A stretch of 64,000 nucleotides of DNA, from the NCBI RefSeq assembly GCF_965641715.1, contig NZ_OZ282453.1, one strand, 5' to 3'. The stretch comes from Escherichia coli (GTDB taxonomy: Bacteria; Pseudomonadota; Gammaproteobacteria; Enterobacterales; Enterobacteriaceae). Shown piece after piece: positions 18,435 to 64,000 of this stretch. The stretch's first letter is position 1; each line of letters starts with the position of its first letter. A program made the position numbers and the translations under genes. The notes below the pieces were generated by a model, which saw nothing but the letters and a program-made list of their open reading frames with translations, was not told where the DNA came from and searched no databases.

Positions 18435-19361
18435 ATGAATTATTCTTTAAAACAATTAAAGGTTTTCGTCACAGTAGCGCAGGAGAAAAGTTTTAGTCGT
18501 GCAGGAGAGCGTATCGGCCTGAGCCAGTCGGCAGTAAGTCACAGTGTGAAGGAGCTGGAAAATCATACTGGTGTTCGCCTGCTGGACAGAACCACGCGTG
18601 AAGTGGTGCTTACAGATGCAGGGCAGCAGTTGGCTTTGCGTCTTGAGCGACTGCTGGATGAACTTAACAGCACGTTGCGCGATACCGGGCGTATGGGGCA
18701 ACAACTGAGCGGAAAAGTTCGGGTCGCTGCCAGCCAGACCATTTCCGCGCATCTTATTCCGCAATGCATTGCTGAAAGCCATCGCCGCTATCCAGATATT
18801 CAGTTTGTCCTGCACGATCGTCCGCAGCAGTGGGTGATGGAAAGTATTCGCCAGGGAGATGTCGACTTTGGCATCGTCATCGATCCAGGCCCAGTGGGCG
18901 ATCTGCAATGTGAAGCGATTCTTTCCGAGCCTTTCTTTCTGCTTTGCCATCGCGATAGCGCTTTGGCCGTGGAAGATTATGTACCCTGGCAGGCATTACA
19001 GGGAGCGAAATTGGTGTTGCAGGATTACGCGTCAGGCAGCCGACCGCTGATTGACGCAGCGCTGGCGCGCAATGGTATTCAGGCGAATATTGTGCAGGAG
19101 ATTGGACATCCGGCGACGCTGTTCCCGATGGTAGCCGCAGGCATCGGCATCAGTATTCTTCCCGCACTGGCGCTACCATTGCCTGAAGGTAGCCCACTGG
19201 TGGTAAAGCGCATTACGCCGGTTGTTGAACGCCAGTTGATGCTGGTGCGCAGGAAGAACCGTTCACTTTCCACCGCCGCTGAAGCGTTATGGGACGTGGT
19301 ACGAGACCAGGGCAATGCGCTAATGGCTGGTCGGGAAGGGGATCCGTTGTATCAGATATAG
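18435..19361 (+). CDS. yfeR: LysR-family transcriptional regulator
   Basis: 308-aa ORF with N-terminal HTH ([35 protein letters not shown]) and LysR substrate-binding domain; divergent from yfeH. Confidence 0.85.
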
Positions 19362-19693
19362 ATATCGATATGAGTCGTATTTTCAACAGGATTTAGAAGG
19401 GATACATTCAGAGACAAACGCTGCTCTTTCTCCTGCGCCTTTTCTGCCTGCTGTCTCTGCAACTGCGCCAGTTGTGTTTCCAGTAGGGTGATTTGCTGTT
19501 GAATCAATTCGGCCTGTTTTTGCTTGTCTTCAGCACTGCCGCTAGTGTCTACAATCTCTTTAATTTGTTGAGTGAGTTTGATGATTTGCTGACTTATCCG
19601 CGCGATTTGTGAAGCAACATCGCTACCTTGTGATGCCCTGTTACTACTCTGTGTTTGTATGGAAGGAATTGAAGTTGAAGAGATAGTGGCCAT
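19352..19693 (-). CDS. FlxA-like small Q-rich coiled-coil protein (113 aa)
   Basis: ATG at 19693 with AGGA 7 nt upstream; Gln/Leu-rich heptad region ([35 protein letters not shown]) and C-terminal IDIYI resemble FlxA-family proteins; overlaps the yfeR 3' end by 10 nt. Confidence 0.65.
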
Positions 19694-19721
19694 TGTTCAG
19701 TCCTCGTCACTGTACGAGGTA

Positions 19722-19748
19722 ATATCGGTAGAAGAACAAGGAACTTGA
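19722..19748 (-). promoter_or_regulatory. Candidate sigma28 (FliA) promoter for the FlxA-like ORF
   Basis: Minus strand reads TCAAGTTC-N11-ACCGATAT against consensus TAAAGTTT-N11-GCCGATAA; -10 ends about 28 nt upstream of the ATG. Confidence 0.45.
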
Positions 19749-19781
19749 GAAGAAAAATCAATCTTACAAATCGCAGATAGC

Positions 19782-19808
19782 AAAAAAGCGCCTTTAGGGC
19801 GCTTTTTT
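19782..19808. terminator. Hairpin terminator 3' of lysV (bidirectional shape)
   Basis: aaaaaagcgcc-ttta-gggcgctttttt immediately downstream of the tRNA-Lys 3' end. Confidence 0.65.
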
Positions 19809-19812
19809 ACAT

Positions 19813-20468: not shown

Positions 20469-21884
20469 ATGAAAATCAAAACTCGCTTCGCGCCAAGCCC
20501 AACAGGCTATCTGCACGTTGGCGGCGCGCGTACTGCTCTTTACTCCTGGCTTTTTGCACGTAACCACGGCGGTGAGTTCGTGCTGCGTATTGAAGACACC
20601 GATCTTGAGCGTTCCACGCCGGAAGCTATCGAAGCCATTATGGATGGCATGAACTGGCTGAGCCTGGAGTGGGATGAAGGTCCGTACTACCAGACCAAAC
20701 GTTTTGATCGCTACAACGCAGTGATCGATCAGATGCTGGAGGAGGGCACTGCTTATAAATGCTATTGCTCTAAAGAGCGCCTGGAAGCGCTGCGCGAAGA
20801 ACAAATGGCGAAAGGTGAGAAGCCGCGTTATGACGGTCGCTGCCGCCACAGTCATGAGCATCACGCTGATGATGAGCCGTGTGTCGTACGTTTTGCTAAC
20901 CCGCAGGAAGGTTCTGTTGTTTTTGACGATCAGATCCGTGGTCCGATCGAGTTCAGCAACCAGGAGCTGGATGATCTGATTATCCGCCGTACCGATGGTT
21001 CCCCAACCTATAACTTCTGTGTGGTTGTCGATGACTGGGATATGGAAATCACCCACGTTATCCGTGGCGAAGACCATATCAACAACACGCCACGCCAGAT
21101 CAACATTCTTAAAGCCCTGAAAGCGCCGGTACCGGTTTACGCGCACGTTTCTATGATCAACGGCGATGACGGCAAAAAACTGTCCAAACGTCACGGGGCA
21201 GTCAGCGTAATGCAGTATCGTGATGACGGTTATTTGCCAGAAGCACTGCTGAACTATCTGGTGCGTCTGGGCTGGTCCCACGGCGATCAGGAAATCTTCA
21301 CTCGTGAAGAGATGATCAAATACTTCACTTTGAATGCCGTCAGCAAATCTGCCAGTGCGTTCAACACCGACAAGCTGCTGTGGCTGAACCATCACTACAT
21401 TAATGCGCTGCCGCCGGAGTATGTTGCTACTCACTTACAGTGGCACATTGAGCAGGAAAATATCGATACCCGTAACGGCCCGCAGCTGGCTGATCTGGTG
21501 AAACTGCTGGGCGAACGCTGCAAGACGCTGAAAGAGATGGCACAGAGCTGCCGTTATTTCTACGAAGATTTTGCTGAGTTCGATGCCGACGCCGCGAAAA
21601 AACATCTGCGTCCGGTAGCGCGTCAGCCGCTGGAAGTGGTTCGTGACAAACTGGCCGCGATTACTGACTGGACCGCTGAAAACGTTCATCACGCTATTCA
21701 GGCGACGGCGGATGAGCTGGAAGTGGGTATGGGTAAAGTTGGTATGCCGCTGCGTGTCGCCGTAACCGGTGCGGGGCAGTCTCCGGCACTGGATGTTACC
21801 GTTCACGCAATCGGTAAGACACGTAGCATTGAGCGTATCAACAAAGCGCTGGCCTTTATTGCTGAACGCGAAAACCAGCAGTAA
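20469..21884 (+). CDS. gltX: Glutamyl-tRNA synthetase
   Basis: 471-aa [33 protein letters not shown]... with HIGH-type and KMSKS-type (KLSKR) motifs. Confidence 0.97.
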
Positions 21885-21903
21885 TTAGCGTGTAAAAAGA
21901 TAA

Positions 21904-21933
21904 ACGGCAGGAGATAATATCCTGCCGTTTTTT
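21904..21933 (+). terminator. Rho-independent terminator downstream of gltX
   Basis: Hairpin acggcagg-agataatat-cctgccgt followed by tttttt. Confidence 0.65.
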
Positions 21934-21935
21934 AT

Positions 21936-22328
21936 TTATGCTGATTCGTCAATATCGAGACGGGCGAGGAAATTGCGAATTCCTTCACGTGACAAAAATT
22001 GCGCGACTTTTTCCTGCTCAATGTCTGTCATATTATCTATCGCGTTGATGATTTGTCGATACGCCGGGGCGCGTGCTCCAGGAGCGTATTCAGCAATTCT
22101 CTCTTCAGCTTCCATCAACATTGGTGTGTTATGGAAGGCTGGCGTGTTCTGAATAAACTCGCAAACTTGCGTATCGACCAGAATAAGTCTGGCACGACCG
22201 CCTTTCACGCCGGGAAATTTTTCCGTTTTCCAGCCTTTTTCTCTGATCCAACGGTTAACAGTTTGTTTAGCCACACCGAGGCATTCAGCCAGTTCTTCGG
22301 TGGTCATTTTATTGCGTAATCTTTTCAT
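21936..22328 (-). CDS. yfeD: Small putative DNA-binding protein, YfeD-like (130 aa)
   Basis: N-terminal HTH-like segment (LAECLGVAKQTVNRWIREKGWKT); paralogous to the adjacent yfeC. Confidence 0.8.
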   Translation of the reverse strand: MKRLRNKMTTEELAECLGVAKQTVNRWIREKGWKTEKFPGVKGGRARLILVDTQVCEFIQNTPAFHNTPMLMEAEERIAEYAPGARAPAYRQIINAIDNMTDIEQEKVAQFLSREGIRNFLARLDIDESA

Positions 22329-25525: not shown

Positions 25526-26864
25526 CATAAGCGCTAACTTAAGGGTTGTGGTATTACGCCTGATATGATTTAACGTGCCGATGAATTACTCTCACGATAA
25601 CTGGTCAGCAATTCTGGCCCATATTGGTAAGCCCGAAGAACTGGATACTTCGGCACGTAATGCCGGGGCTCTAACCCGCCGCCGCGAAATTCGTGATGCT
25701 GCAACTCTGCTACGTCTGGGGCTGGCTTACGGCCCCGGGGGGATGTCATTACGTGAAGTCACTGCATGGGCTCAGCTCCATGACGTTGCAACATTATCTG
25801 ACGTGGCTCTCCTGAAGCGGCTGCGGAATGCCGCCGACTGGTTTGGCATACTTGCCGCACAAACACTTGCTGTACGCGCCGCAGTTACGGGTTGTACAAG
25901 CGGAAAGAGATTGCGTCTTGTCGATGGAACAGCAATCAGTGCGCCCGGGGGCGGCAGCGCTGAATGGCGACTACATATGGGATATGATCCTCATACCTGT
26001 CAGTTCACTGATTTTGAGCTAACCGACAGCAGAGACGCTGAACGGCTGGACCGATTTGCGCAAACGGCAGACGAGATACGCATTGCTGACCGGGGATTCG
26101 GTTCGCGTCCCGAATGTATCCGCTCACTTGCTTTTGGAGAAGCTGATTATATCGTCCGGGTTCACTGGCGAGGATTGCGCTGGTTAACTGCAGAAGGAAT
26201 GCGCTTTGACATGATGGGTTTTCTGCGCGGGCTGGATTGCGGTAAGAACGGTGAAACCACTGTAATGATAGGCAATTCAGGTAATAAAAAAGCCGGAGCT
26301 CCCTTTCCGGCACGTCTCATTGCCGTATCACTTCCTCCCGAAAAAGCATTAATCAGTAAAACCCGACTGCTCAGCGAGAATCGTCGAAAAGGACGAGTAG
26401 TTCAGGCGGAAACGCTGGAAGCAGCGGGCCATGTGCTATTGCTAACATCATTACCGGAAGATGAATATTCAGCAGAGCAAGTGGCTGATTGTTACCGTCT
26501 GCGATGGCAAATTGAACTGGCTTTTAAGCGGCTCAAAAGTTTGCTGCACCTGGATGCTTTGCGTGCAAAGGAACCTGAACTCGCGAAAGCGTGGATATTT
26601 GCTAATCTACTCGCCGCATTTTTAATTGACGACATAATCCAGCCATCGCTGGATTTCCCCCCCAGAAGTGCCGGATCCGAAAAGAAGAACTAACTCGTTG
26701 TGGAGAATAACAAAAATGGTCATCTGGAGCTTACAGGTGGCCATTCGTGGGACAGTATCCCTGACAGCCTACAAAACGCAATTGAAGAACGCGAGGCATC
26801 GTCTTAACGAGGCACCGAGGCGTCGCATTCTTCAGATGGTTCAACCCTTAAGTTAGCGCTTATG
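25526..26864 (+). mobile_element. IS186 insertion sequence (IS4 family), about 1.34 kb
   Basis: Terminal inverted repeats cataagcgctaacttaagggttg (left) and caacccttaagttagcgcttatg (right); flanked by a duplicated ggaattatcc-type target sequence; carries one transposase ORF. Confidence 0.93.
25575..26693 (+). CDS. insL: IS186 transposase (372 aa as read)
   Basis: ORF MNYSHDNWSAILAHIGKPEELDTSARNAGALTRR... inside the IS186 inverted repeats; IS4-family DDE transposase. Confidence 0.93.
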   Translation: MPMNYSHDNWSAILAHIGKPEELDTSARNAGALTRRREIRDAATLLRLGLAYGPGGMSLREVTAWAQLHDVATLSDVALLKRLRNAADWFGILAAQTLAVRAAVTGCTSGKRLRLVDGTAISAPGGGSAEWRLHMGYDPHTCQFTDFELTDSRDAERLDRFAQTADEIRIADRGFGSRPECIRSLAFGEADYIVRVHWRGLRWLTAEGMRFDMMGFLRGLDCGKNGETTVMIGNSGNKKAGAPFPARLIAVSLPPEKALISKTRLLSENRRKGRVVQAETLEAAGHVLLLTSLPEDEYSAEQVADCYRLRWQIELAFKRLKSLLHLDALRAKEPELAKAWIFANLLAAFLIDDIIQPSLDFPPRSAGSEKKN

Positions 26865-36655: not shown

Positions 36656-39151
36656 ATGTTAACGATTCAATTTCTCTGTCCTTTGCCTAACGGTCTACAT
36701 GCTCGTCCGGCGTGGGAACTTAAAGAACAGTGCAGCCAGTGGCAAAGCGAAATCACTTTTATTAACCATCGCCAGAACGCAAAGGCCGATGCCAAAAGCT
36801 CGCTGGCGCTGATTGGCACCGGCACCCTATTTAATGACAGTTGCAGCCTGAACATTAGCGGCAGCGATGAAGAGCAGGCGCGGCGCGTGCTGGAAGAGTA
36901 CATCCAGGTGCGCTTTATCGACAGCGACAGCGTTCAGCCTACGCAGGCAGAACTGACGGCGCATCCGCTGCCGCGTTCATTAAGCCGCCTTAACCCGGAT
37001 TTACTATACGGCAATGTGCTGGCAAGCGGCGTCGGCGTGGGTACGCTGACCCTGTTACAAAGCGACAGCCTCGACAGTTATCGGGCAATCCCCGCCAGTG
37101 CGCAAGATTCCACCCGGCTGGAGCACAGCCTGGCAACGCTTGCCGAGCAACTGAACCAGCAATTGCGTGAGCGTGACGGCGAAAGCAAAACTATCCTCAG
37201 CGCCCATTTGTCGCTGATTCAGGATGATGAATTTGCAGGCAATATCAGTCGCCTGATGACAGAACAGCATCAGGGGCTGGGGGCGGCGATCATCAGCAAT
37301 ATGGAGCAGGTTTGCGCCAAACTTTCTGCTTCTACCAGCGATTATCTGCGCGAACGTGTTAGCGACATTCGCGATATTAGCGAACAGTTGCTGCATATTA
37401 CCTGGCCGGAACTGAAGCCGCGCAACAATCTGGTGCTGGAAAAACCGACTATTCTGGTGGCCGAGGATTTAACCCCAAGCCAGTTTTTAAGCCTGGAGTT
37501 AAAAAATCTTGCGGGCATGATTCTGGAGAAAACCGGGCGCACCTCGCATACCCTGATTCTGGCCCGCGCCTCGGCGATCCCGGTACTGAGCGGCCTGCCG
37601 CTGGATGCGATTGCCCGTTATGCCGGGCAACCTGCAGTGCTTGACGCCCAGTGCGGCGTGCTGGCGATTAACCCGAATGACGCGGTTAGCGGTTATTATC
37701 AGGTCGCGCAGACGCTGGCGGATAAACGCCAAAAACAACAGGCGCAGGCTGCCGCGCAGCTGGCTTATTCCCGTGATAACAAGCGTATTGATATCGCGGC
37801 GAATATTGGCACCGCTCTGGAAGCGCCTGGCGCGTTTGCCAACGGCGCGGAAGGCGTCGGGCTGTTCCGTACCGAAATGCTCTATATGGATCGCGACAGC
37901 GCGCCGGACGAGCAGGAGCAATTTGAAGCCTACCAGCAGGTGCTACTGGCAGCGGGCGACAAGCCGATTATCTTCCGCACAATGGACATCGGAGGCGATA
38001 AAAGCATTCCTTATCTGAATATTCCCCAGGAAGAGAACCCGTTCCTCGGCTATCGCGCGGTACGTATTTACCCGGAATTTGCTGGCCTGTTCCGCACTCA
38101 ACTGCGGGCCATTTTGCGCGCCGCCAGTTTCGGCAACGCCCAGTTGATGATCCCGATGGTTCACAGCCTCGATCAGATCTTATGGGTGAAGGGCGAGATC
38201 CAAAAAGCGATCGTTGAGCTTAAGCGCGATGGCCTGCGTCATGCAGAGACGATTACGCTGGGTATCATGGTGGAAGTGCCGTCGGTGTGCTACATCATCG
38301 ATCACTTCTGCGATGAGGTCGATTTCTTCAGTATCGGCTCCAACGATATGACCCAGTATCTGTATGCGGTCGATCGTAATAACCCGCGCGTATCGCCGCT
38401 ATATAACCCGATTACGCCATCGTTCCTGCGCATGTTGCAGCAAATAGTTACCACTGCGCATCAGCGGGGCAAATGGGTAGGCATTTGCGGTGAACTGGGC
38501 GGTGAAAGTCGTTATCTGCCGCTACTGCTTGGGCTGGGACTGGACGAGTTAAGCATGAGTAGTCCGCGCATTCCGGCGGTGAAAAGCCAGCTTCGTCAAC
38601 TGGATAGCGAGGCGTGTCGGGAACTGGCGCGTCAGGCATGTGAATGCCGCAGCGCGCAGGAAATTGAAGCGTTACTCACCGCCTTTACGCCGGAAGAAGA
38701 CGTTCGCCCATTACTGGCGCTGGAGAATATCTTTGTTGATCAGTCCTTTAGCAATAAAGAGCAGGCGATCCAGTTCCTGTGCGGTAACCTCGGCGTTAAC
38801 GGGCGCACTGAACATCCGTTCGAGCTGGAAGAGGATGTCTGGCAGCGGGAAGAGATTGTCACCACTGGCGTTGGTTTTGGCGTGGCGATCCCGCACACCA
38901 AATCTCAGTGGATCCGTCATTCCAGTATCAGCATTGCCCGGCTGGCGAAACCGGTTGACTGGCAGTCAGAAATGGGCGAAGTCGAACTGGTGATCATGCT
39001 GACGCTGGGTGCTAACGAAGGGATGAATCATGTGAAAGTCTTCTCGCAGCTGGCGCGTAAACTGGTGAATAAAAACTTCCGCCAGTCGTTGTTTGCCGCG
39101 CAAGATGCACAAAGTATCCTGACGCTGCTGGAAACAGAATTAACCTTCTGA
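36656..39151 (+). CDS. fryA: PTS multiphosphoryl transfer protein (HPr-like, EI-like and EIIA-like domains fused)
   Basis: 831-aa ORF; N-terminal HPr-like segment (LPNGLHARPA), central EI homology (GGRTSH, GSNDMTQY), C-terminal EIIA-Fru-like domain. Confidence 0.9.
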   Translation: MLTIQFLCPLPNGLHARPAWELKEQCSQWQSEITFINHRQNAKADAKSSLALIGTGTLFNDSCSLNISGSDEEQARRVLEEYIQVRFIDSDSVQPTQAELTAHPLPRSLSRLNPDLLYGNVLASGVGVGTLTLLQSDSLDSYRAIPASAQDSTRLEHSLATLAEQLNQQLRERDGESKTILSAHLSLIQDDEFAGNISRLMTEQHQGLGAAIISNMEQVCAKLSASTSDYLRERVSDIRDISEQLLHITWPELKPRNNLVLEKPTILVAEDLTPSQFLSLELKNLAGMILEKTGRTSHTLILARASAIPVLSGLPLDAIARYAGQPAVLDAQCGVLAINPNDAVSGYYQVAQTLADKRQKQQAQAAAQLAYSRDNKRIDIAANIGTALEAPGAFANGAEGVGLFRTEMLYMDRDSAPDEQEQFEAYQQVLLAAGDKPIIFRTMDIGGDKSIPYLNIPQEENPFLGYRAVRIYPEFAGLFRTQLRAILRAASFGNAQLMIPMVHSLDQILWVKGEIQKAIVELKRDGLRHAETITLGIMVEVPSVCYIIDHFCDEVDFFSIGSNDMTQYLYAVDRNNPRVSPLYNPITPSFLRMLQQIVTTAHQRGKWVGICGELGGESRYLPLLLGLGLDELSMSSPRIPAVKSQLRQLDSEACRELARQACECRSAQEIEALLTAFTPEEDVRPLLALENIFVDQSFSNKEQAIQFLCGNLGVNGRTEHPFELEEDVWQREEIVTTGVGFGVAIPHTKSQWIRHSSISIARLAKPVDWQSEMGEVELVIMLTLGANEGMNHVKVFSQLARKLVNKNFRQSLFAAQDAQSILTLLETELTF

Positions 39152-53171: not shown

Positions 53172-56100
53172 TTAGTCATTTTGCTGACAGAAAACAGCAA
53201 TCTCCTGGTCCAGCTCTGCAATGTGTTCTTTTACAGAGTTCAGCAGCTGAAGAATTTCAGGCTTACTGTCATCTGAAACAGGTGTTATTTCTAACTGATG
53301 GCTAATATTAATCAACTTTTGCAAATTCAGGATGTTAGCCGCACCGTGGATGCGATGAATACACTGATGGAAAGTTCTGTTATCGCCAGCTTGCAGCGCA
53401 TGAAATGCAGCGGGTAGATCTTTATGCGTTTCATGCTGGAAAGTCATGAGAATCTCCTGCATCAGTTGTAGATCGTTCGCCGTATTATTTTTCAGGGCCT
53501 CGATATCAAGGTGGCGATACTGAGGTACAATATGTGCAACCTGGTGTAACTGACTTAAATGTGTTTTCAGTACATCCAGGGTCAACGGTTTGAACAAACA
53601 TAAGTTCATGCCGCAATTTAACCCTTTTTCACGTTCGTTAGCCTGTGCGTTGGCTGTAAGCCCCCAGATGGGTAAGGAAGAATTTTGCTCACGGAGTTTG
53701 CGAGTCAACTCAAAACCATCCATATTCGGCATATTAACGTCAGTAACAAGCAGATCATAATGTTGCATACTGACTTTGTGTAGCGCTTGCACACCATCGG
53801 TGGCTTCATCAACATCATATCCTAATAGATTTAGCTGGCGTTTGAGTAATAGCCTGTTGGTCGGATGATCATCCGCGATTAATATGCTCAACTTTTCAGG
53901 TAGTGTGATAGGTTGTTCTGCTTTTGCCTCGACAGCCGCCACTTGTTGGGTAATTTCTACCGGGATTGTGATCGTAAATGTTGTTCCTATGCCTGGATGA
54001 CTTTCTAATGACAAATCACCCTGCATGTTTTTAATTAATTCTTTGCAGATCATTAAGCCTAAACCAGAACCTGTTTGCTGACGACCTGCACTTGTTTGGC
54101 TATAACGTTTAAACAGTTGTTGTTGTTCTTCCTGTGATAATCCACTTCCAGAATCCATAATCGTCATTTTGATTACAGCGTGGTTGTCATCAATGTGAAC
54201 CAGGGAGGTCGTAATTTTTACTGCCCCCTCGGTGGTAAATTTGAGAGCATTACTCAGTAAATTTGATAAGACCTGCTTAAACGCCTGAGGGTCGATCTTA
54301 ACCAGGTAATGTTCAGGAAACGTACTGCTGCAACTTAATGCGATCGATTTGCTTGCAGCAATCGCACCGAAAGAGTGACAAGTGTTCTGGACTAAAGTAG
54401 GAATATCGACCCATTGTGGTTGAAGTTGATAGTTACCCGATTCAATTTTGTCGACATCAAGGATTTCACCAATTAAGCCGAGGAGTGATTGTCCGGTGGC
54501 GTAGGCAAGTGAAATCGCCTCCACCCGTTGTTCCTTGCTAAGACCAGAACCCGACAGAAGTTCCAGGAAGCCCATAATGGAGCTTATTGGTGTTCTTATT
54601 TCGTGACTCATTGTTGCCAGAAACTGACTTTTTGCGACAGTTGCATTGATCGCTTTATTTCTCTCTACTTCGAGTGCATGAATTAAATCACGCGTCTCGG
54701 TAATATCTTGCCAACCACAAATATAAACAGCATGTTCGCTGGCTGGCAGATTACATAATGTATGCCAGTGATTAATGCATCTTTTCTCGATGCCATTATC
54801 AATTTCAAATACCTGTGTGTATATTGTTCGATTTTCTTTCGTCTCTGCTGTGACTTCATGCGTATTAGAAAAAACATCTTTAAAGGGTGATTCACTGTTT
54901 TCTAATGGCAACATTGCATTTTTGTAGTAATCAGCAGTGAAATAATGTTCAAATGCACTATTGTGACTAATGACATTACCTTGCCAGTTTACAACATAAG
55001 TTGGATTCGGTAAGGAGTCCGAGAGCGCTTTCCGGAATGATATTTGGTTTTCTAAATCACCCTGAATGACTTTACGACGACGAACTGAGCGTAACAGGTA
55101 GAATCCCCATAAAAGGCTACTGCCAACTAATAAAACGGATAATGTCGTAACAATATAAAATTGCTCGCTATAGAGGTCCCATGTGTCAATGGTCACATTG
55201 GGCATTTTAATCCATTTTTCGGTCAGGCGCAGAACTTCGCTTGGGGGGATTGCATTCAGTGCTTTATTAATAATATCCTTAAGTTCCGGTTCTCCGCGAG
55301 GAAAAGCGAACGAAAGCGATGCATTCGGAACGCCGGGAATAAGAAAATGATAAAGTTCATTAGGATAGTAATGGTCGATCATGTAACGTGAATTTAGCTG
55401 TGTCGCGACCAGAGCATCAAGTTCACCTTCCTTGACCTTGTGAAATGCAGCGCTGGCGTTATCGACTTTTATCCACTCTACCTCCGGATACATCTCTTTT
55501 AATTGCGAATGCAGCTCATAATAATATGGAATGGCAACTTTCATTCCTTTTTTTAATGTTTGTTCACTGTCAGGCGCTTTTTGCATGACAAAAACGTAAG
55601 GCGTTGTTATGAAGGCTTCAGCAAATAAAACATTATTTTCTCTATCTTCACTATAAATAGCACCGGGTAATATATCCCATCCGCCGGGATTCAGCTGTGT
55701 TCCAGCATGGATATTGTGTGAAACGGTGATCGGAGAAAAATTTAAACCTGTTTGCAAGGTAATAATATTAAGAATGTCCCCCATAACGCCCCGAACCGAG
55801 CCATTTTCATCCGTCATAGAATAGGGGGGCGAGTAAGGATTTTCCAGCACCTTTAAATCGGGATGCTGCTTAATCCATTGTTTTTCATGTTCAGTGAGTT
55901 CTAATGGTTTGTTCAGAAAGGCCAGGTTTCCTGTATCAAGCCAATTTTGTGATACTTCATAGCGAACTTCATTTGTCAAAGCATCAACAAATCGATTGAG
56001 TACTTCATTAAGAACGACAGATTCTTTTCTGGTCAAGAAAAAATTATATTGACGCGGTGAGTTATAATATTTCACTACATTTAAGGAGTGAGTGAAATAG

Positions 56101-56765
56101 CGGGAAATCATACTGCTGGTAATGATGTTACTACCAATAAAGTAATCATTCTGTCCGGCAGAGACGGATGCTAATGCCTGATATAAATTTGTAAAAGAGA
56201 TAATTGTTGCTTTTGGAAATGATTGATGAATTACCTCGTCAGGGGGATAATTTGCTACTCGAGCAATATTTACTGGTTTTGATGAGGTAAGCGGTCGCAT
56301 TGAATCGTGAAGGGTGGTGACCAGCGCCGGAAAGGTAATTATCAGTGGTTTGGTTGCAGCAATGTCATCATTAAGAGGCGGCGAAGCAACTAAATGTGAT
56401 AACACTATATCGACTTCACCTTCTTCCAGCGCGTCCATTGCTTTTTGATGATCGGCGTATTCCCGGAGTGTTAATTTGATATTTAACGCTCTTTTTAAAA
56501 GATTTAAATAATCAGCATTAATACCACGAACCCGTTGCTGCGAATCGGTATGCAACAACGTAGCCGTTTGGGACTTATGTACTGCAATCACAAGATTTTT
56601 TTTGCTCGCTAACCAACGTAATTCCTTGTTGCTCAGACGTAGTGGATCAAGTGTGACACGGTTGTTACTACTGATGCCACGATATTCGATGTAATCTTCG
56701 TCTGCGAAACTTATGGTCGACCAAAGACCACAACAGAGAAGAAAAATATAGGGTAAAAACTTCAT
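53172..56765 (-). CDS. evgS: Hybrid sensor histidine kinase EvgS
   Basis: 1197-aa ORF: signal peptide, two periplasmic binding-protein-like domains, TM, HisKA (H-box SHEIRTP), HATPase, receiver and HPt domains. Confidence 0.96.
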   Translation of the reverse strand: MKFLPYIFLLCCGLWSTISFADEDYIEYRGISSNNRVTLDPLRLSNKELRWLASKKNLVIAVHKSQTATLLHTDSQQRVRGINADYLNLLKRALNIKLTLREYADHQKAMDALEEGEVDIVLSHLVASPPLNDDIAATKPLIITFPALVTTLHDSMRPLTSSKPVNIARVANYPPDEVIHQSFPKATIISFTNLYQALASVSAGQNDYFIGSNIITSSMISRYFTHSLNVVKYYNSPRQYNFFLTRKESVVLNEVLNRFVDALTNEVRYEVSQNWLDTGNLAFLNKPLELTEHEKQWIKQHPDLKVLENPYSPPYSMTDENGSVRGVMGDILNIITLQTGLNFSPITVSHNIHAGTQLNPGGWDILPGAIYSEDRENNVLFAEAFITTPYVFVMQKAPDSEQTLKKGMKVAIPYYYELHSQLKEMYPEVEWIKVDNASAAFHKVKEGELDALVATQLNSRYMIDHYYPNELYHFLIPGVPNASLSFAFPRGEPELKDIINKALNAIPPSEVLRLTEKWIKMPNVTIDTWDLYSEQFYIVTTLSVLLVGSSLLWGFYLLRSVRRRKVIQGDLENQISFRKALSDSLPNPTYVVNWQGNVISHNSAFEHYFTADYYKNAMLPLENSESPFKDVFSNTHEVTAETKENRTIYTQVFEIDNGIEKRCINHWHTLCNLPASEHAVYICGWQDITETRDLIHALEVERNKAINATVAKSQFLATMSHEIRTPISSIMGFLELLSGSGLSKEQRVEAISLAYATGQSLLGLIGEILDVDKIESGNYQLQPQWVDIPTLVQNTCHSFGAIAASKSIALSCSSTFPEHYLVKIDPQAFKQVLSNLLSNALKFTTEGAVKITTSLVHIDDNHAVIKMTIMDSGSGLSQEEQQQLFKRYSQTSAGRQQTGSGLGLMICKELIKNMQGDLSLESHPGIGTTFTITIPVEITQQVAAVEAKAEQPITLPEKLSILIADDHPTNRLLLKRQLNLLGYDVDEATDGVQALHKVSMQHYDLLVTDVNMPNMDGFELTRKLREQNSSLPIWGLTANAQANEREKGLNCGMNLCLFKPLTLDVLKTHLSQLHQVAHIVPQYRHLDIEALKNNTANDLQLMQEILMTFQHETHKDLPAAFHALQAGDNRTFHQCIHRIHGAANILNLQKLINISHQLEITPVSDDSKPEILQLLNSVKEHIAELDQEIAVFCQQND

Positions 56766-56769
56766 GTGG

Positions 56770-57384
56770 TTAGCCGATTTTGTTACGTTGTGCGAATGTG
56801 TAAAGATCCATCAGTGATTTACATTCTAATTTTTCCATCAGGCGACTTTTATAAGTGCTGACAGTTTTGTTGCTGATGAACATTTTTTCAGCAATGTCAT
56901 TATTATCCTTGCCATCAAGAATATACCGCATGACACTAATTTCTTGTTTCGATAAGGAGTCGAGTTTTTGCTGGTCGGACGTTAAACTTCCAACAAACCG
57001 GTTGAGAGAGAAGGGGAAATAGCAGTAGCCATTTTTTGCAGCTTCAATAGCCGCAATGATATTGTTCATGCCTTCTTTTTTACTCACGAAACCATTAGCG
57101 CCAGCATCAGCACAATGTTTCCCGTAAAAATGGTCATTTTTAGCGGAGACGATAATAATAATTCCGCTATATTGGCGCTTCCTCAGCGTTTCTAACACCT
57201 GGATACCGTTAACTCCGGGGATATCGACATCAATGATGACGATATCAGGCTTAAGTGTTTCCACCCGCTGAACGGCACTTCCGCCTTCAGTCAACTCTGC
57301 TAAGATTTCAATATCGTTTTTGATCAATAAATTACGAATTGCTGCGATAGCAAGAGGATGGTCATCAATAATTATTGCGTTCAT
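56770..57384 (-). CDS. evgA: Response regulator EvgA (NarL/FixJ family)
   Basis: 204-aa ORF MNAIIIDDHPLAIAAIRNLL... with receiver and LuxR-type HTH. Confidence 0.96.
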   Translation of the reverse strand: MNAIIIDDHPLAIAAIRNLLIKNDIEILAELTEGGSAVQRVETLKPDIVIIDVDIPGVNGIQVLETLRKRQYSGIIIIVSAKNDHFYGKHCADAGANGFVSKKEGMNNIIAAIEAAKNGYCYFPFSLNRFVGSLTSDQQKLDSLSKQEISVMRYILDGKDNNDIAEKMFISNKTVSTYKSRLMEKLECKSLMDLYTFAQRNKIG

Positions 57385-57609
57385 AGATTATTCCCTTTGC
57401 AATGAAGCATCTCCCTTCTCCCTGTAGTAATACAGACATAAGGCATCATCTCATTTTCTCAATAAAAATAAGAAAATTTGAGCTTCCTTTAAGATAATTC
57501 GACAAGTATACCATATAAATAGTCGGCATATATGAAATGTCAACAATAAAATCAGGGATTGTACCGATGATTTATAGTTTCACATTAGCACTATAAGTCT
57601 TCTCACTAA

Positions 57610-57626
57610 TCCTACAGGCGTAAGAA
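57610..57626. promoter_or_regulatory. Candidate EvgA-binding inverted repeat in the evgA-emrK divergent region
   Basis: tcctacaggcgtaagaa; on the other strand TTCTTACGCCTGTAGGA resembles the TTCPyTACA / TGTAPuGAA half-site pattern. Confidence 0.35.
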
Positions 57627-57799
57627 TTGTATTGCAAAAGCCACGGTTTAGTCCTCTGTTGTTTTTTTTTCACCTCATTTAAATTAGGCCTCCAACGTTC
57701 CTGGGATAATGTGCAACACATGCACTGTGTTTGATATGAAGAATGAATACTCTTTTCATTCAATTCATAAATTTCATCTATGCGAAATGAGAGATAAAA

Positions 57800-58963
57800 G
57801 TGGAACAGATTAATTCAAATAAAAAACATTCTAACAGAAGAAAATACTTTTCTTTATTGGCGATAGTTTTATTTATTGCGTTTTCAGGTGCTTATGCCTA
57901 TTGGTCAATGGAATTAGAAGACATGATTAGTACAGATGACGCCTATGTCACGGGGAATGCAGATCCAATTTCTGCACAAGTCTCAGGTAGTGTCACTGTA
58001 GTTAATCATAAAGATACGAACTACGTTCGACAGGGTGACATTTTAGTTTCACTGGATAAAACTGATGCCACTATCGCACTCAATAAAGCTAAAAATAATC
58101 TGGCAAATATTGTTCGGCAAACGAATAAACTGTACTTACAGGATAAACAATACAGTGCCGAAGTCGCTTCAGCACGTATTCAGTATCAACAATCTTTAGA
58201 AGATTATAACCGTCGTGTGCCTTTAGCGAAGCAGGGGGTTATTTCAAAAGAAACGCTGGAGCATACCAAAGATACGTTAATAAGTAGCAAAGCGGCATTG
58301 AATGCCGCTATCCAGGCTTATAAAGCGAATAAAGCTTTAGTAATGAACACACCATTAAACCGTCAGCCACAAGTCGTTGAAGCTGCGGATGCAACCAAAG
58401 AAGCCTGGTTGGCGCTTAAACGTACGGATATTAAGAGTCCGGTTACCGGCTATATTGCCCAGCGAAGTGTTCAGGTCGGCGAAACAGTGAGTCCCGGACA
58501 ATCGTTAATGGCTGTCGTACCAGCACGTCAAATGTGGGTTAATGCCAACTTTAAAGAAACACAACTCACGGATGTACGGATTGGTCAATCGGTCAATATT
58601 ATCAGCGATCTTTATGGTGAGAATGTTGTGTTTCATGGCCGGGTGACAGGGATCAATATGGGAACCGGCAATGCGTTCTCCTTATTACCTGCACAAAATG
58701 CGACAGGGAACTGGATCAAAATCGTTCAGCGTGTACCGGTTGAAGTTTCTCTTGATCCAAAAGAACTCATGGAACACCCCTTGCGCATTGGTTTATCGAT
58801 GACTGCAACTATTGATACGAAGAACGAAGACATTACTGAGATGCCTGAGCTGGCTTCAACCGTGACGTCCATGCCGGCTTATACCAGTAAGGCTTTAGTT
58901 ATCGATACCAGTCCGATAGAAAAAGAAATTAGCAACATTATTTCGCATAATGGACAACTTTAA
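57800..58963 (+). CDS. emrK: Multidrug efflux membrane fusion protein (GTG start as read)
   Basis: 387-aa ORF (M)EQINSNKKHSNRRKYFSLLAIVLFIAF..., HlyD-family. Confidence 0.9.
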   Translation: MEQINSNKKHSNRRKYFSLLAIVLFIAFSGAYAYWSMELEDMISTDDAYVTGNADPISAQVSGSVTVVNHKDTNYVRQGDILVSLDKTDATIALNKAKNNLANIVRQTNKLYLQDKQYSAEVASARIQYQQSLEDYNRRVPLAKQGVISKETLEHTKDTLISSKAALNAAIQAYKANKALVMNTPLNRQPQVVEAADATKEAWLALKRTDIKSPVTGYIAQRSVQVGETVSPGQSLMAVVPARQMWVNANFKETQLTDVRIGQSVNIISDLYGENVVFHGRVTGINMGTGNAFSLLPAQNATGNWIKIVQRVPVEVSLDPKELMEHPLRIGLSMTATIDTKNEDITEMPELASTVTSMPAYTSKALVIDTSPIEKEISNIISHNGQL

Positions 58964-60501
58964 TGGCAATCACTAAATCAACTCCGGCACCATTAACCGG
59001 TGGGACGTTATGGTGCGTCACTATTGCATTGTCATTAGCGACGTTTATGCAAATGTTGGATTCCACTATTTCTAACGTCGCAATACCGACAATATCTGGC
59101 TTTCTGGGAGCATCAACAGACGAAGGTACCTGGGTTATCACTTCGTTTGGCGTAGCAAATGCCATTGCGATCCCTGTTACCGGCAGGCTGGCACAAAGAA
59201 TAGGCGAATTAAGGTTATTTTTACTTTCAGTCACTTTTTTTTCGCTGTCTTCCTTAATGTGTAGTTTATCGACCAATCTTGATGTGCTGATATTTTTTAG
59301 AGTCGTTCAGGGGTTAATGGCAGGGCCGTTAATTCCACTGTCACAGAGTTTATTATTAAGGAATTATCCACCAGAAAAAAGAACATTTGCTCTGGCATTA
59401 TGGTCAATGACCGTGATTATCGCTCCGATATGTGGGCCGATATTGGGCGGTTATATTTGTGATAACTTTAGCTGGGGTTGGATATTTTTAATCAATGTCC
59501 CTATGGGGATTATCGTCCTGACATTATGCTTAACCTTACTTAAAGGAAGAGAAACTGAGACTTCACCGGTCAAAATGAATCTACCAGGACTGACCCTGTT
59601 AGTGCTCGGTGTTGGTGGCTTGCAAATTATGCTTGATAAAGGGCGCGATCTGGATTGGTTCAACTCGAGTACAATAATAATATTAACAGTAGTATCAGTT
59701 ATTTCTCTGATCTCTTTAGTCATTTGGGAGTCGACCTCAGAGAACCCGATTCTTGATCTCAGTTTGTTTAAGTCCCGTAATTTCACCATTGGTATAGTGA
59801 GTATCACATGCGCGTATTTATTTTACTCTGGAGCGATCGTCCTTATGCCGCAGTTACTCCAGGAAACGATGGGGTATAATGCGATATGGGCCGGACTTGC
59901 TTATGCGCCCATCGGCATCATGCCACTATTAATTTCACCTTTGATAGGACGTTATGGCAACAAAATAGACATGCGGTTGTTAGTGACATTTAGTTTTTTG
60001 ATGTATGCGGTTTGCTATTACTGGCGTTCTGTGACATTTATGCCAACGATTGATTTTACAGGTATCATTTTGCCGCAGTTTTTTCAGGGATTCGCCGTTG
60101 CCTGTTTCTTTTTACCCTTAACAACGATTTCGTTTTCAGGCTTGCCAGATAATAAATTTGCCAATGCCTCGAGTATGAGTAATTTTTTTCGTACCTTGTC
60201 AGGATCAGTTGGTACGTCGTTGACAATGACGCTGTGGGGACGACGCGAATCGTTACACCATAGTCAGTTAACAGCAACCATCGATCAATTTAACCCCGTG
60301 TTTAATTCATCGTCACAAATTATGGATAAATACTATGGTTCGCTTTCAGGAGTTCTTAATGAAATTAATAATGAAATAACCCAGCAGTCACTTTCTATTT
60401 CTGCAAATGAGATTTTCCGTATGGCGGCTATTGCTTTTATCTTACTTACGGTTTTGGTGTGGTTTGCGAAACCGCCTTTTACAGCGAAAGGCGTTGGGTG
60501 A
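58963..60501 (+). CDS. emrY: Multidrug efflux MFS transporter (14-TM, EmrB-like)
   Basis: 512-aa multi-TM ORF; start overlaps the emrK stop by 1 nt. Confidence 0.93.
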   Translation: MAITKSTPAPLTGGTLWCVTIALSLATFMQMLDSTISNVAIPTISGFLGASTDEGTWVITSFGVANAIAIPVTGRLAQRIGELRLFLLSVTFFSLSSLMCSLSTNLDVLIFFRVVQGLMAGPLIPLSQSLLLRNYPPEKRTFALALWSMTVIIAPICGPILGGYICDNFSWGWIFLINVPMGIIVLTLCLTLLKGRETETSPVKMNLPGLTLLVLGVGGLQIMLDKGRDLDWFNSSTIIILTVVSVISLISLVIWESTSENPILDLSLFKSRNFTIGIVSITCAYLFYSGAIVLMPQLLQETMGYNAIWAGLAYAPIGIMPLLISPLIGRYGNKIDMRLLVTFSFLMYAVCYYWRSVTFMPTIDFTGIILPQFFQGFAVACFFLPLTTISFSGLPDNKFANASSMSNFFRTLSGSVGTSLTMTLWGRRESLHHSQLTATIDQFNPVFNSSSQIMDKYYGSLSGVLNEINNEITQQSLSISANEIFRMAAIAFILLTVLVWFAKPPFTAKGVG

Positions 60502-60608
60502 TGGTAAAAGGAGGGGGTTATAGCGGGTAAGACCGGGGATCTTAAGTCTGCGCCATCGGCAGCATCGCTCACCCAGGGAAAGGATGGCGATGCTGCGTTG
60601 AAACGTTA

Positions 60609-61937
60609 TTAACGGCCTTTTGCCAGATATTGATTCATCTCTTCTTCCGGCACCATTCCACCTCCCGTCGCCCACACCAGATGAGTGGTATTACGCAGTT
60701 GTTCTGCGCTGAAACCGTGCATCTGTTGGTAACTTACTGATGCACACACGCGCTGAGGTCCGGCCATACCCGCCAGTGCCGAAGGTTCAAGACGAATACC
60801 TTCTTCCTGCGCCAGCCAGCCAAGCATGTCATACATGGTTTGATCGCTAAGGGTATAGAAGCCATCCAGCAGACGCTCCATTGCCCGCCCGACAAAGCCT
60901 GATGCGCGACCAACTGCAAGGCCATCCGCTGCGGTAAGGTTGTCGATACCAATATCCTGAACAGAAATCTGATCGTGTAATCCTGTATGGACGCCTAACA
61001 ACATACAAGGGGAGTGCGTTGGTTCGGCAAAAAAGCAGTGAACATGATCGCCAAACGCCAGTTTAAGCCCGAATGCGACGCCACCAGGACCACCGCCAAC
61101 ACCACACGGCAGATAGACAAACAGAGGGTTATCAGCATCGACGATACGGCCTTGCTGGGCAAATTGCGCTTTAAGACGCTGGCCAGCGACGGAATACCCA
61201 AGGAACAACGTGCGGGAATTTTCGTCATCAATAAAGAAACAGTTCGGGTCAGACTGCGCTGCTTTACGTCCTTCCTCGACGGCAACACCATAATCTTGCT
61301 CATATTCCACGACCGTAACGCCATGGCTGCGCAGTTTCGCTTTTTTCCATGCCCGGGCATCAGCAGACATATGCACTGTCACCTTAAAGCCAATGCGGGC
61401 GCTCATTATGCCGATTGACAATCCCAGATTTCCGGTTGAGCCCACAGCAATGCTGTATTGGCTAAAGAACTGTTTAAACTCCTGAGAAAGCAGTTTGCTG
61501 TAGTCATCTTCAAGTGTCAGCAACCCCGCTTCCAGAGCCAGTTTTTCTGCGTGTGCCAGGACTTCATAAATCCCGCCGCGTGCTTTTATGGAGCCGGAAA
61601 TGGGCAAATGGCTATCTTTTTTCAGTAACAGTTGCCCGCTGATCGGTTGTTGATATTCCTTTTCCAGCCGTTTTTGCATAGCCGGAATGGCAACCAGTTC
61701 TGATTCAATAATCCCCCCAGTGGCAGCAGTTTCAGGAAATGCTTTTGCCAGATAGGGTGCAAAACGGGATAAGCGCGCATGGGCGTCCTGAACATCCTGT
61801 TCGGTCAGGCCAACATAAGGTAAACCTTCAGCCAATGAGGTCGTGCCAGGATTAAACCAGGTGGTTTCTTTAAGAGCAACCAGATCCTTTACCAACGGAT
61901 ACTGGGCGATGAGCGAGTTCATTTTAGCGTTTTCCAT
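60609..61937 (-). CDS. dsdA: D-serine dehydratase (PLP-dependent)
   Basis: 442-aa [34 protein letters not shown]... with PLP lysine region (SGSIKARGG). Confidence 0.96.
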
Positions 61938-61954
61938 AGTACGTCTCTTTGCGC

Positions 61955-63292
61955 TTAGATGATAAATGACAGCAGGAATGTGCCCGCCAGAGCGACGACT
62001 GAAGCGATAAATGTCGCTGTCGTATAGTATTTAAATGTTTCATTGAGCGTAGCGCCGCAATATTGCTTCACCAGCCAGAAAAGCGAGTCCGTAACGATCG
62101 TGCAGCCAATTGCGCCTGAACCGATAGCAATCGCAATAATTTCCGGGCTGATGTCGGGATACAGCGGCAGCATGGGTGCAACAATTGCCGTTGCCCCCAT
62201 CATTGCCACGGTAGCGGAGCCCACTGCAGCATGCAGAATAAGAGCCACTAACCAGGCCAGAAGAATCGGGTGCATATGCATATTGGAGAGAATCACTGCC
62301 AGCGTATCAGCGAGACTGCTGCTTTTTAAAATGGCGTTGAATGCGCCTCCTGCCCCGATAATCAGCAAAATATTAGCAATAGAACCGAAGCCATTTTCCG
62401 TATGTGTGAGCATCGTACCCATGCTCATATGCTGGCGTATACCCAACACATAATAGGCGACAAACACGGCGATAAACATGGCAGTGATAGGGTTGCCAAT
62501 AAACTCAAGCAAGATATACAAACCACTCTCACGCGCCATATTCAATTCGGCAATCGTTTTAACCAACATCAGCGCAATGGGTAGCAGTATGGTGAATAAC
62601 GTTGCGCATAATGACGGTAGTGTTTTTTCATCGCGAACTTTGAGATCGGCAAACTCTGTGGGTACAGGTTTAAAGGGCAGTCGTTGACCCAGAAATTTAA
62701 GGAAAAGTGGGCCACCGATCAGTGATGCCATCAGCCCAACCAGCAAACCGTAGACGATCACCGAACCGATATCTGCGCCCAGCTTATTGGCAACATATAA
62801 AGCAGCCGGATGTGGGGGAACCACGCAGTGCACTGCCATCAATGCGGTACACAGCGGAATGGCCAGCTTTAACAATGAGGTATTGGTTTTTTTGGCAATT
62901 GAAAAAGCCAGAGGAATCAATAGCACGACGCCCACTTCAACAAACAGCGTGATGCCGCAAATCAGGCCAACCAGCACCATAATGACATCAGCCGAAAGCC
63001 AGCGGCAGCGTTGAAGTGTCAGACCAATTCTTTCTGCGGCCCCGGATACTTCCATCATTTTTCCCAGTATCGTGCCAAGGCCGATAACCGCAGCAAGGAA
63101 CCCCAGCGTTCCGCCAATTCCACTTTCAATAGCATTTACCATATCCAGTGGCCCCATGCCCATCATCGTTCCCACGAAGAAGCTGGCCAGTAACAGCGCC
63201 AGAAACGGGTGGAATTTGAACTTCACGATGGTCAGTACAATTAACACGATGCTGATAAGCAGCGTGCTCACAACCCAGATTTGAGAGTGCAT
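61955..63292 (-). CDS. dsdX: D-serine transporter (GntP family)
   Basis: 445-aa multi-TM ORF immediately upstream of dsdA. Confidence 0.93.
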
Positions 63293-63509
63293 ATCTCACC
63301 TTCCCCTGTGATTAATCTGATGATATTGGACAAAAAAACAATGCAGGCTGACAAACGATAAAATTTGCCTTTCACATGAGACAAATTGCATCAAGGGAGT
63401 GATTTACATCTAAAAATGAAGTTAAATTGAGATATGGTTCACTTTAGCTCACCTTACAGCTGAAATTTTGCCGCTATTTTTTTACACTTAAGAGAAAAAT
63501 GAGGTGATT

Positions 63510-64000
63510 ATGGAACCCCTTCGTGAAATAAGAAATCGACTGCTTAACGGCTGGCAACTATCAAAACTGCATACTTTTGAAGTGGCTGCCAGGCATCAGT
63601 CCTTCGCCCTGGCGGCAGAGGAATTGTCGCTGAGCCCCAGTGCGGTAAGTCACCGTATCAATCAGCTGGAAGAAGAATTGGGTATTCAGTTGTTTGTTCG
63701 TTCCCATCGCAAAGTGGAATTAACGCACGAGGGGAAACGCGTTTATTGGGCGCTAAAATCGTCGCTGGATACCCTGAACCAGGAAATTCTTGATATCAAA
63801 AATCAGGAGTTATCGGGAACGTTAACTCTGTATTCCCGGCCCTCTATCGCTCAATGCTGGTTGGTGCCCGCATTAGGTGACTTTACACGCCGCTATCCGT
63901 CTATTTCGCTCACCGTGCTCACTGGTAATGACAATGTCAATTTGCAACGTGCCGGAATCGATTTGGCGATCTACTTTGATGATGCGCCGTCAGCGCAACT
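63510..64000 (+). CDS. dsdC: LysR-family activator of dsdXA, N-terminal part; 3' end beyond window end
   Basis: ATG at 63510 gives MEPLREIRNRLLNGWQLSKLHTFEVAARHQSFALAAEELSLSPSAVSHRINQLEE... (LysR HTH); open to the window edge; divergent from dsdX. Confidence 0.88.
   Translation, partial: MEPLREIRNRLLNGWQLSKLHTFEVAARHQSFALAAEELSLSPSAVSHRINQLEEELGIQLFVRSHRKVELTHEGKRVYWALKSSLDTLNQEILDIKNQELSGTLTLYSRPSIAQCWLVPALGDFTRRYPSISLTVLTGNDNVNLQRAGIDLAIYFDDAPSAQ

Follow-up and report, generated by a model that had tools for sequence, protein, structure and literature searches.

The roles of the three proteins encoded by the dsd locus of E. coli, DsdC, DsdX and DsdA, have been described (PMC4366372; PMC9659370; PMC4569052). 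Transcription of dsdXA is D-serine-inducible and DsdC-dependent in K-12 and in NMEC, and in both the region between dsdX and dsdC contains the DsdC operator and the dsdXA and dsdC promoters; DsdC footprinting and a ChIP peak have been reported for this region, and the DsdC footprint covers 47 bp (PMC9659370). A second route for D-serine import is provided by CycA, which is encoded elsewhere (PMC4366372, PMC9659370, PMC4569052). CFT073 can use D-serine as its only carbon source, an ability that is lost when dsdA is deleted (PMC4569052). The dsdCXA genes are ancestral and about 98% of strains still have dsdA, while at argW, a recombination hotspot, dsdC and most of dsdX have been exchanged for a sucrose locus, chiefly in LEE-positive strains (PMC4366372; PMC9659370). 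The state of dsdCXA is a recognised marker of niche and pathotype in E. coli: intact genes are frequent in urinary and meningitis isolates, and LEE-positive intestinal pathogens typically have the csc replacement (PMC4366372).

The end of the stretch of DNA analysed here (64,000 nucleotides, referred to as the window) carries dsdA, dsdX and the 5' part of dsdC. This is very probably the chromosomal dsdC-dsdXA locus for D-serine tolerance and utilisation in its complete ancestral-type state, not replaced by csc genes. It lies beside emrKY-evgAS with dsdC divergent from dsdX-dsdA, and coordinates and synteny are identical to those in K-12, XJ34 and CFT073. Gene order and orientation are shared with dsdC-dsdXA of K-12 MG1655 (b2364-b2366), as are the gaps of 217 bp and 17 bp and the convergent placement of emrY and dsdA; the K-12 dsd proteins are 99% identical to those of the window, and the control region is 11 substitutions apart. 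The coding sequence in view is intact throughout and nearly identical to that of characterised orthologues, so that chance resemblance is not an issue.

By analogy with K-12, CFT073 and NMEC, the divergently transcribed, LysR-type DsdC would bind its operator in the 217-bp intergenic region and, in the presence of D-serine, would activate the dsdXA operon. As in K-12 and CFT073, DsdX, a permease of the GntP family, would import D-serine and DsdA would convert it to pyruvate and ammonia, a breakdown expected both to remove a bacteriostatic compound and to yield carbon and nitrogen. On the same analogy, we infer that the genes are expressed and that the strain can grow on D-serine or tolerate it.

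The dsdX and dsdA genes

The dsdA gene (60609..61937, minus strand) appears in the list of open reading frames as a full-length gene for a PLP-dependent D-serine ammonia-lyase of 442 amino acids. The preliminary description had set the start of the locus at 60609, which is exactly the end of the dsdA stop codon, and had regarded both dsdA and dsdX as intact, as is borne out by their full-length frames, their near-identity to K-12 and their scores above the equivalog cut-offs. In BLASTP comparison, DsdA is identical to the K-12 MG1655 protein at 440 of 442 residues, with no gaps, and the two changes from K-12 to the window are D143E and P152Q. It scores 814.6 bits against the TIGR02035 equivalog (cut-off 368.25) and 776.8 bits against NF002823 (cut-off 246), and it has a Pfam PALP match of 161 bits. 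The crystallised E. coli D-serine dehydratase (PDB 3SS7) aligns with DsdA over residues 1-442, and the segment SGSIKARG is the same in both. Within this segment lies Lys118, the PLP-binding lysine of E. coli DsdA. The exact DsdA sequence of the window is already public on 170 contigs, and a dsdA match of some kind was found in 5,397 of the 5,426 complete E. coli genomes that served as the comparison set throughout.

A perfect 10-bp inverted repeat with an 18-nt loop (60559..60596, minus strand) is located 13 bp past the dsdA stop codon, in the convergent gap between dsdA and emrY. It might conceivably form a structure at the transcript end; it is followed by no T-run and was not among the output of the terminator scan of 60400-64000, which gave no convincing terminator in that region. 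An Rfam scan of 57000-64000 revealed no known RNA element, its sole match being a chance snoRNA hit (E = 0.58).

Upstream of dsdA, a spacer of 17 bp (61938..61954, minus strand), equal in length to that of K-12, separates it from dsdX, and because of this short spacing the two genes are taken to form one operon. The dsdX gene (61955..63292, minus strand) is likewise a full-length open reading frame and encodes the D-serine transporter, a GntP-family permease of 445 amino acids. Over residues 1-445 DsdX matches the K-12 protein at 442 positions by BLASTP, with no gaps and with the replacements V101A, G229C and V262L. The Pfam GntP_permease domain spans residues 7-444. The NF007395 equivalog gives 937 bits (cut-off 618), and the gluconate transporter equivalogs give 249-298 bits, under their own cut-offs.

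Relative to other strains, most codon changes are synonymous, which points to purifying selection on both genes: compared with K-12, dsdX has 17 synonymous and 3 non-synonymous changes, and dsdA has 8 and 2, respectively. The G229C replacement in DsdX is non-conservative relative to K-12, yet it is a common allele in public data. The exact DsdX protein of the window is found on 209 public contigs, and genes with the C229 codon (TGC) turn up in several genomic backgrounds, separated from the window by synonymous changes only. C229 is a standing allele, neither an error nor a recent lesion.

The dsdC gene within and beyond the window

The dsdC gene, for a LysR-type activator, begins with an ATG at 63510 and is cut by the end of the window, so that codons 1-163 of 315 are visible (63510..64000, plus strand). 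The preliminary description had called the gene partial, and the visible half is indeed sound: its 163 complete codons are stop-free to the window end, and the encoded sequence is identical to K-12 at 162 of 163 residues (BLASTP, no gaps), the one change being M20L. Pfam finds a complete HTH_1 domain at residues 18-76 and the beginning of LysR_substrate. Cut by the window end, the 163-codon product scores 314.1 bits with NF007491 (cut-off 316) and 312.2 bits with TIGR02036 (cut-off 352.4).

The remaining 152 codons (164-315) lie past the window end and are known just from assemblies that are identical to the window over the overlap. Loci extending beyond the window were located in a large assembly collection by means of the exact 1,197-aa EvgS protein and then of the DsdC so obtained. 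Three independent assemblies match the final 10.5-17.8 kb of the window with 100% identity: GCA_050371815.1 shows 0 mismatches over 17,782 bases compared, and both Logan ERR8574369 (locus L023) and GCA_021646925.1 show 0 over 10,491 bases. GCA_053637755.1 has 1 mismatch over 10,491 bases, and a further locus (L015), on the same Logan ERR8574369 contig as L023, has 2 over 20,829 bases. In all five loci dsdC is an unbroken open reading frame of 315 codons. The full-length protein from the window-identical assemblies scores 595.9 bits with NF007491 and 592.7 bits with TIGR02036, above both cut-offs. The DsdC of GCA_050371815.1 carries a private A245V replacement.

The C-terminal end of DsdC differs between the known forms. 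K-12 and XJ34 have a 311-aa protein ending in KTTS, whereas the 315-aa protein of the window's lineage has the eight residues SQYECYTL in place of these four. This tail is of the CFT073 type, and the DNA departs from the K-12/XJ34 form right after AGAACAGGTAA, where it turns AT-rich. With the tail included, DsdC of the lineage is identical to that of CFT073 at 311 of 315 residues. Ala165 and Phe200 differ from K-12, XJ34 and A30; the CFT073-type protein shares Ala165 and differs at position 200.

Past dsdC, the window-identical assemblies carry ipuB, ipuA, a gene for a GerE-type regulator (ipuR) and upaE, whose product is a giant autotransporter with a length of 2,639 aa or more; in K-12, by contrast, dsdC is followed by the end of the CPS-53 prophage (torI, pawZ). 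The annotations of A30, of an O18:H1 strain and of CFT073 show the same junction and the same order, dsdC-ipuB-ipuA-HTH regulator-UpaE-OmpH-argW. The lineage thus shares with the argW-dsdCXA island of CFT073 (dsdCXA-ipuB-ipuA-ipuR-upaE-argW) the junction at the 3' end of dsdC, the tail of the 315-aa protein and the downstream gene order, although the island itself is outside the window and is known for this lineage from the window-identical assemblies only. The backbone of the window is not CFT073-like, as its dsdA is 68 nucleotides away from that of the O18:H1 strain, whose DsdA has the same accession as that of CFT073. Neither dsdC nor dsdX is under the control of the ipuS switch (PMC6458436).

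A break in dsdC just past the window end would leave the system without its essential activator. The window ends after codon 163, the 3' end of dsdC adjoins the recombination hotspot (PMC4366372), and in this lineage the last four codons were replaced at the island junction. Against this, the gene is stop-free over 315 codons in the three loci with no mismatch to the window and in the one with a single mismatch, its product passes both DsdC equivalog models, and CFT073, with a working locus, has the identical tail. The identical assemblies show no frameshift or early stop beyond the window, the finding that the preliminary description had named as one that would overturn it, and such a disruption is very unlikely, as judged from these sister assemblies and not from the source record.

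The control region between dsdX and dsdC

The divergent control region between the two genes (63293..63509, 217 bp) is equal in length to that of K-12. It differs from that of K-12 at 11 positions, from that of CFT073 at 6 and from that of XJ34 at 1. XJ34 is the closest relative in this region among complete genomes, and the lone difference is at 63422, where the window has T for G, a position 130 bp upstream of the start codon of dsdX and 88 bp upstream of that of dsdC. Each of the other seven strains in the comparison carries G here. The 41-mer around the T was found in 1 of the 5,426 complete genomes, strain N3. Strain N3 was considered as a relative of the window and rejected, with an identity of 97.9%, so the shared T at 63422 reflects either chance or a small patch of recombination. 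The dsdA gene of strain N3 is frameshifted.

A simple promoter scan found no sigma-70 consensus in 60400-64000, compared with 4.7 expected in shuffled sequences. The missing consensus fits an activator-dependent promoter, though the scan is uninformative for promoters of this type. A search of the control region for CRP-like and LysR T-N11-A dyads gave weak matches only, at 7-8 of 10 positions, and no sites were assigned.

We considered whether the locus of this lineage could be complete yet silent or wrongly regulated, owing to the G-to-T change at 63422, to G229C in DsdX or to Ala165 and Phe200 in DsdC. The rarity of the T, the G in the seven other strains, the non-conservative nature of G229C and the two DsdC residues set apart from K-12, XJ34 and A30 (with Phe200 alone set apart from the CFT073-type protein) could all be read in this way. 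However, 63422 is one base in a region of 217 bp that tolerates 4-11 differences among functional strains (K-12, CFT073), the exact DsdX protein with C229 occurs on more than 200 contigs and in several backgrounds with synonymous changes only, as expected of a maintained functional allele, and non-synonymous changes are not in excess in the lineage. A silent or misregulated locus is therefore unlikely. Since K-12 and CFT073 are functional despite their 11 and 6 differences in the control region, the T at 63422 is treated as probably neutral. That it changes D-serine inducibility, rendering dsdXA constitutive or uninducible, for instance, or that the island-derived eight-residue tail of DsdC alters the regulator, seems still less likely.

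Distribution of the locus and its replacement by sucrose genes

Megablast of 58000-64000 against the 5,426 complete genomes recovered emrK, emrY, dsdA, dsdX and dsdC with their order kept. The preliminary description had held that the locus is strain-variable in E. coli, that sucrose-utilisation genes replace it in some lineages and that its state can serve as a lineage marker, and the genome counts uphold the first two points. Positions 60609-64000 are covered to at least 80% in 2,733 of the 5,426 genomes. In an evenly spaced sample along the ranking of matches, about half of the genomes cease to match at query base 1564, corresponding to position 62172 of the window, within dsdX. All shortened matches end at this same base, and this population breakpoint (62172..62173) is unbroken in the window. 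A query spanning the junction of truncated dsdX and cscR detected it in 2,659 of 5,426 genomes (about 49%), in agreement with the published account (PMC4366372). The counts over the 5,426 genomes thus reproduce the published dsdCXA/csc picture.

The alternative state is illustrated by O157:H7, in which the same chromosomal site is occupied and dsdA is kept, but sucrose genes stand in place of dsdC and of about 373 codons at the start of dsdX; its annotation shows a dsdX remnant of 219 bp (72 codons), followed by cscR, cscA, cscK and cscB. The prevalence of this state (about 49% of the complete genomes) might suggest that the region analysed here is also an EHEC-type remnant with dsdA and a dsdX stub only. 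In the window, however, dsdX is full-length with 445 codons, the homology continues across 62172 into the control region and dsdC, colinear with intact loci, and no csc genes are present within the window; the sequence itself refutes a csc-substituted remnant.

The strain is therefore among the approximately 50% of E. coli in which the ancestral D-serine system is preserved, and, from the identical assemblies, also among the approximately 4% with the CFT073-type ipuBA-upaE island, the dsdC/ipuB junction being present in 236 of 5,426 complete genomes. The type of junction downstream of dsdC is a finer lineage marker than the presence or absence of the locus, and in this respect the use proposed in the preliminary description can be refined. 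The locus itself is ordinary, already known and explained, and it opens no new question.

Complete RefSeq genomes reach at most 99.0-99.6% identity to any part of the window. For this reason Shigella or a cryptic clade was considered as the origin, an assumption made unnecessary by the draft E. coli assemblies that match the window exactly. Some complete genomes have two or three matching places for 60609-64000, and NMEC with two dsdCXA copies, alike in genes and regulation, has been described (PMC9659370); the window shows one dsdCXA copy in its 64 kb.

The D-serine locus and its control region

The D-serine locus lies at the end of the window, with dsdA (60609-61937) and dsdX (61955-63292) on the minus strand and dsdC running from 63510 on the plus strand. 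In DsdX, codon 229 (62606-62608) was found to be TGC and so to encode Cys, whereas K-12, XJ34, A30, 100416 and the uropathogenic strain CFT073 all have Gly at this residue, encoded by GGC or GGA. The exact Cys229 form of the protein found in the window was present in at least 209 public contigs from several backgrounds. A G-to-T substitution was also observed at 63422 in the 217-bp control region between the divergent dsdX and dsdC genes (63293-63509). The window and the assemblies identical to it carry T at this position, whereas G was found in all seven of the other strains compared. The exact 41-mer surrounding this base (63402-63442) was present in only one of the 5,426 complete E. coli genomes, that of the unrelated strain N3.

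The dsdC 3' end and the adjoining island

The 3' end of dsdC and the island beyond it lie past the window end and were followed in assemblies identical to the window (GCA_050371815.1, 1-2335, and a contig of the Logan run ERR8574369, 10925-20948). Where dsdC meets an AT-rich island in these assemblies, its terminal four codons are replaced by eight others. This island carries genes for two tyrosine invertases (IpuB and IpuA), a regulator of the GerE type and an autotransporter resembling UpaE, which is at least 2,639 aa long. CFT073 showed the same replacement of the dsdC end and the same island gene content, and the junction was common to 236 of the 5,426 complete genomes.

Nearest genomes and uneven divergence

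No part of the window was matched by a complete RefSeq E. coli genome at an identity above 99.0-99.6%. Sequence identical to the window was confined to draft and third-party assemblies and one Logan run, and the lineage therefore seems to have no complete RefSeq genome in the collection searched. The level of divergence from K-12 varied across 53172-57384: evgS had 102 nucleotide differences over 3.6 kb (2.8%), and the adjoining evgA had none. The nearest strain also varied by gene, being XJ34 for dsdA and L009 for dsdX. This gene-by-gene shift, together with the uneven divergence from K-12, suggests a recombination mosaic.

Gene content and insertion elements elsewhere in the window

The xapR-xapB-xapA-yfeN block, which in K-12 sits between lysV and yfeR, is missing from the window (19355-19812), and its place is occupied by a FlxA-like ORF of 113 aa on the minus strand (19355-19693), as in strain 100416. 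The gap between pdeA and nupC holds an IS186/IS421-type transposase gene (25581-26690), at the position that IS186C occupies in K-12; this gene accounts for the numerous plasmid matches to 25001-50000. The IS200/IS605 tnpA'-insQ element was not present in the gltX-yfeD gap (21882-21938), whereas strain 100416, otherwise colinear with the window, has an insertion of ~1.7 kb between these genes. The fryA (ptsP-like) ORF (36656-39148) is intact, whereas the annotation of 100416 lists fryA as a pseudogene interrupted by an internal stop. The emrY gene of the window is likewise intact (512 aa). In GCA_025432695.1, a sister assembly from the window's lineage, a 1-bp indel is located near aligned window position ~60167 and emrY was not called near it, which could reflect either an assembly error or a genuine pseudogene.
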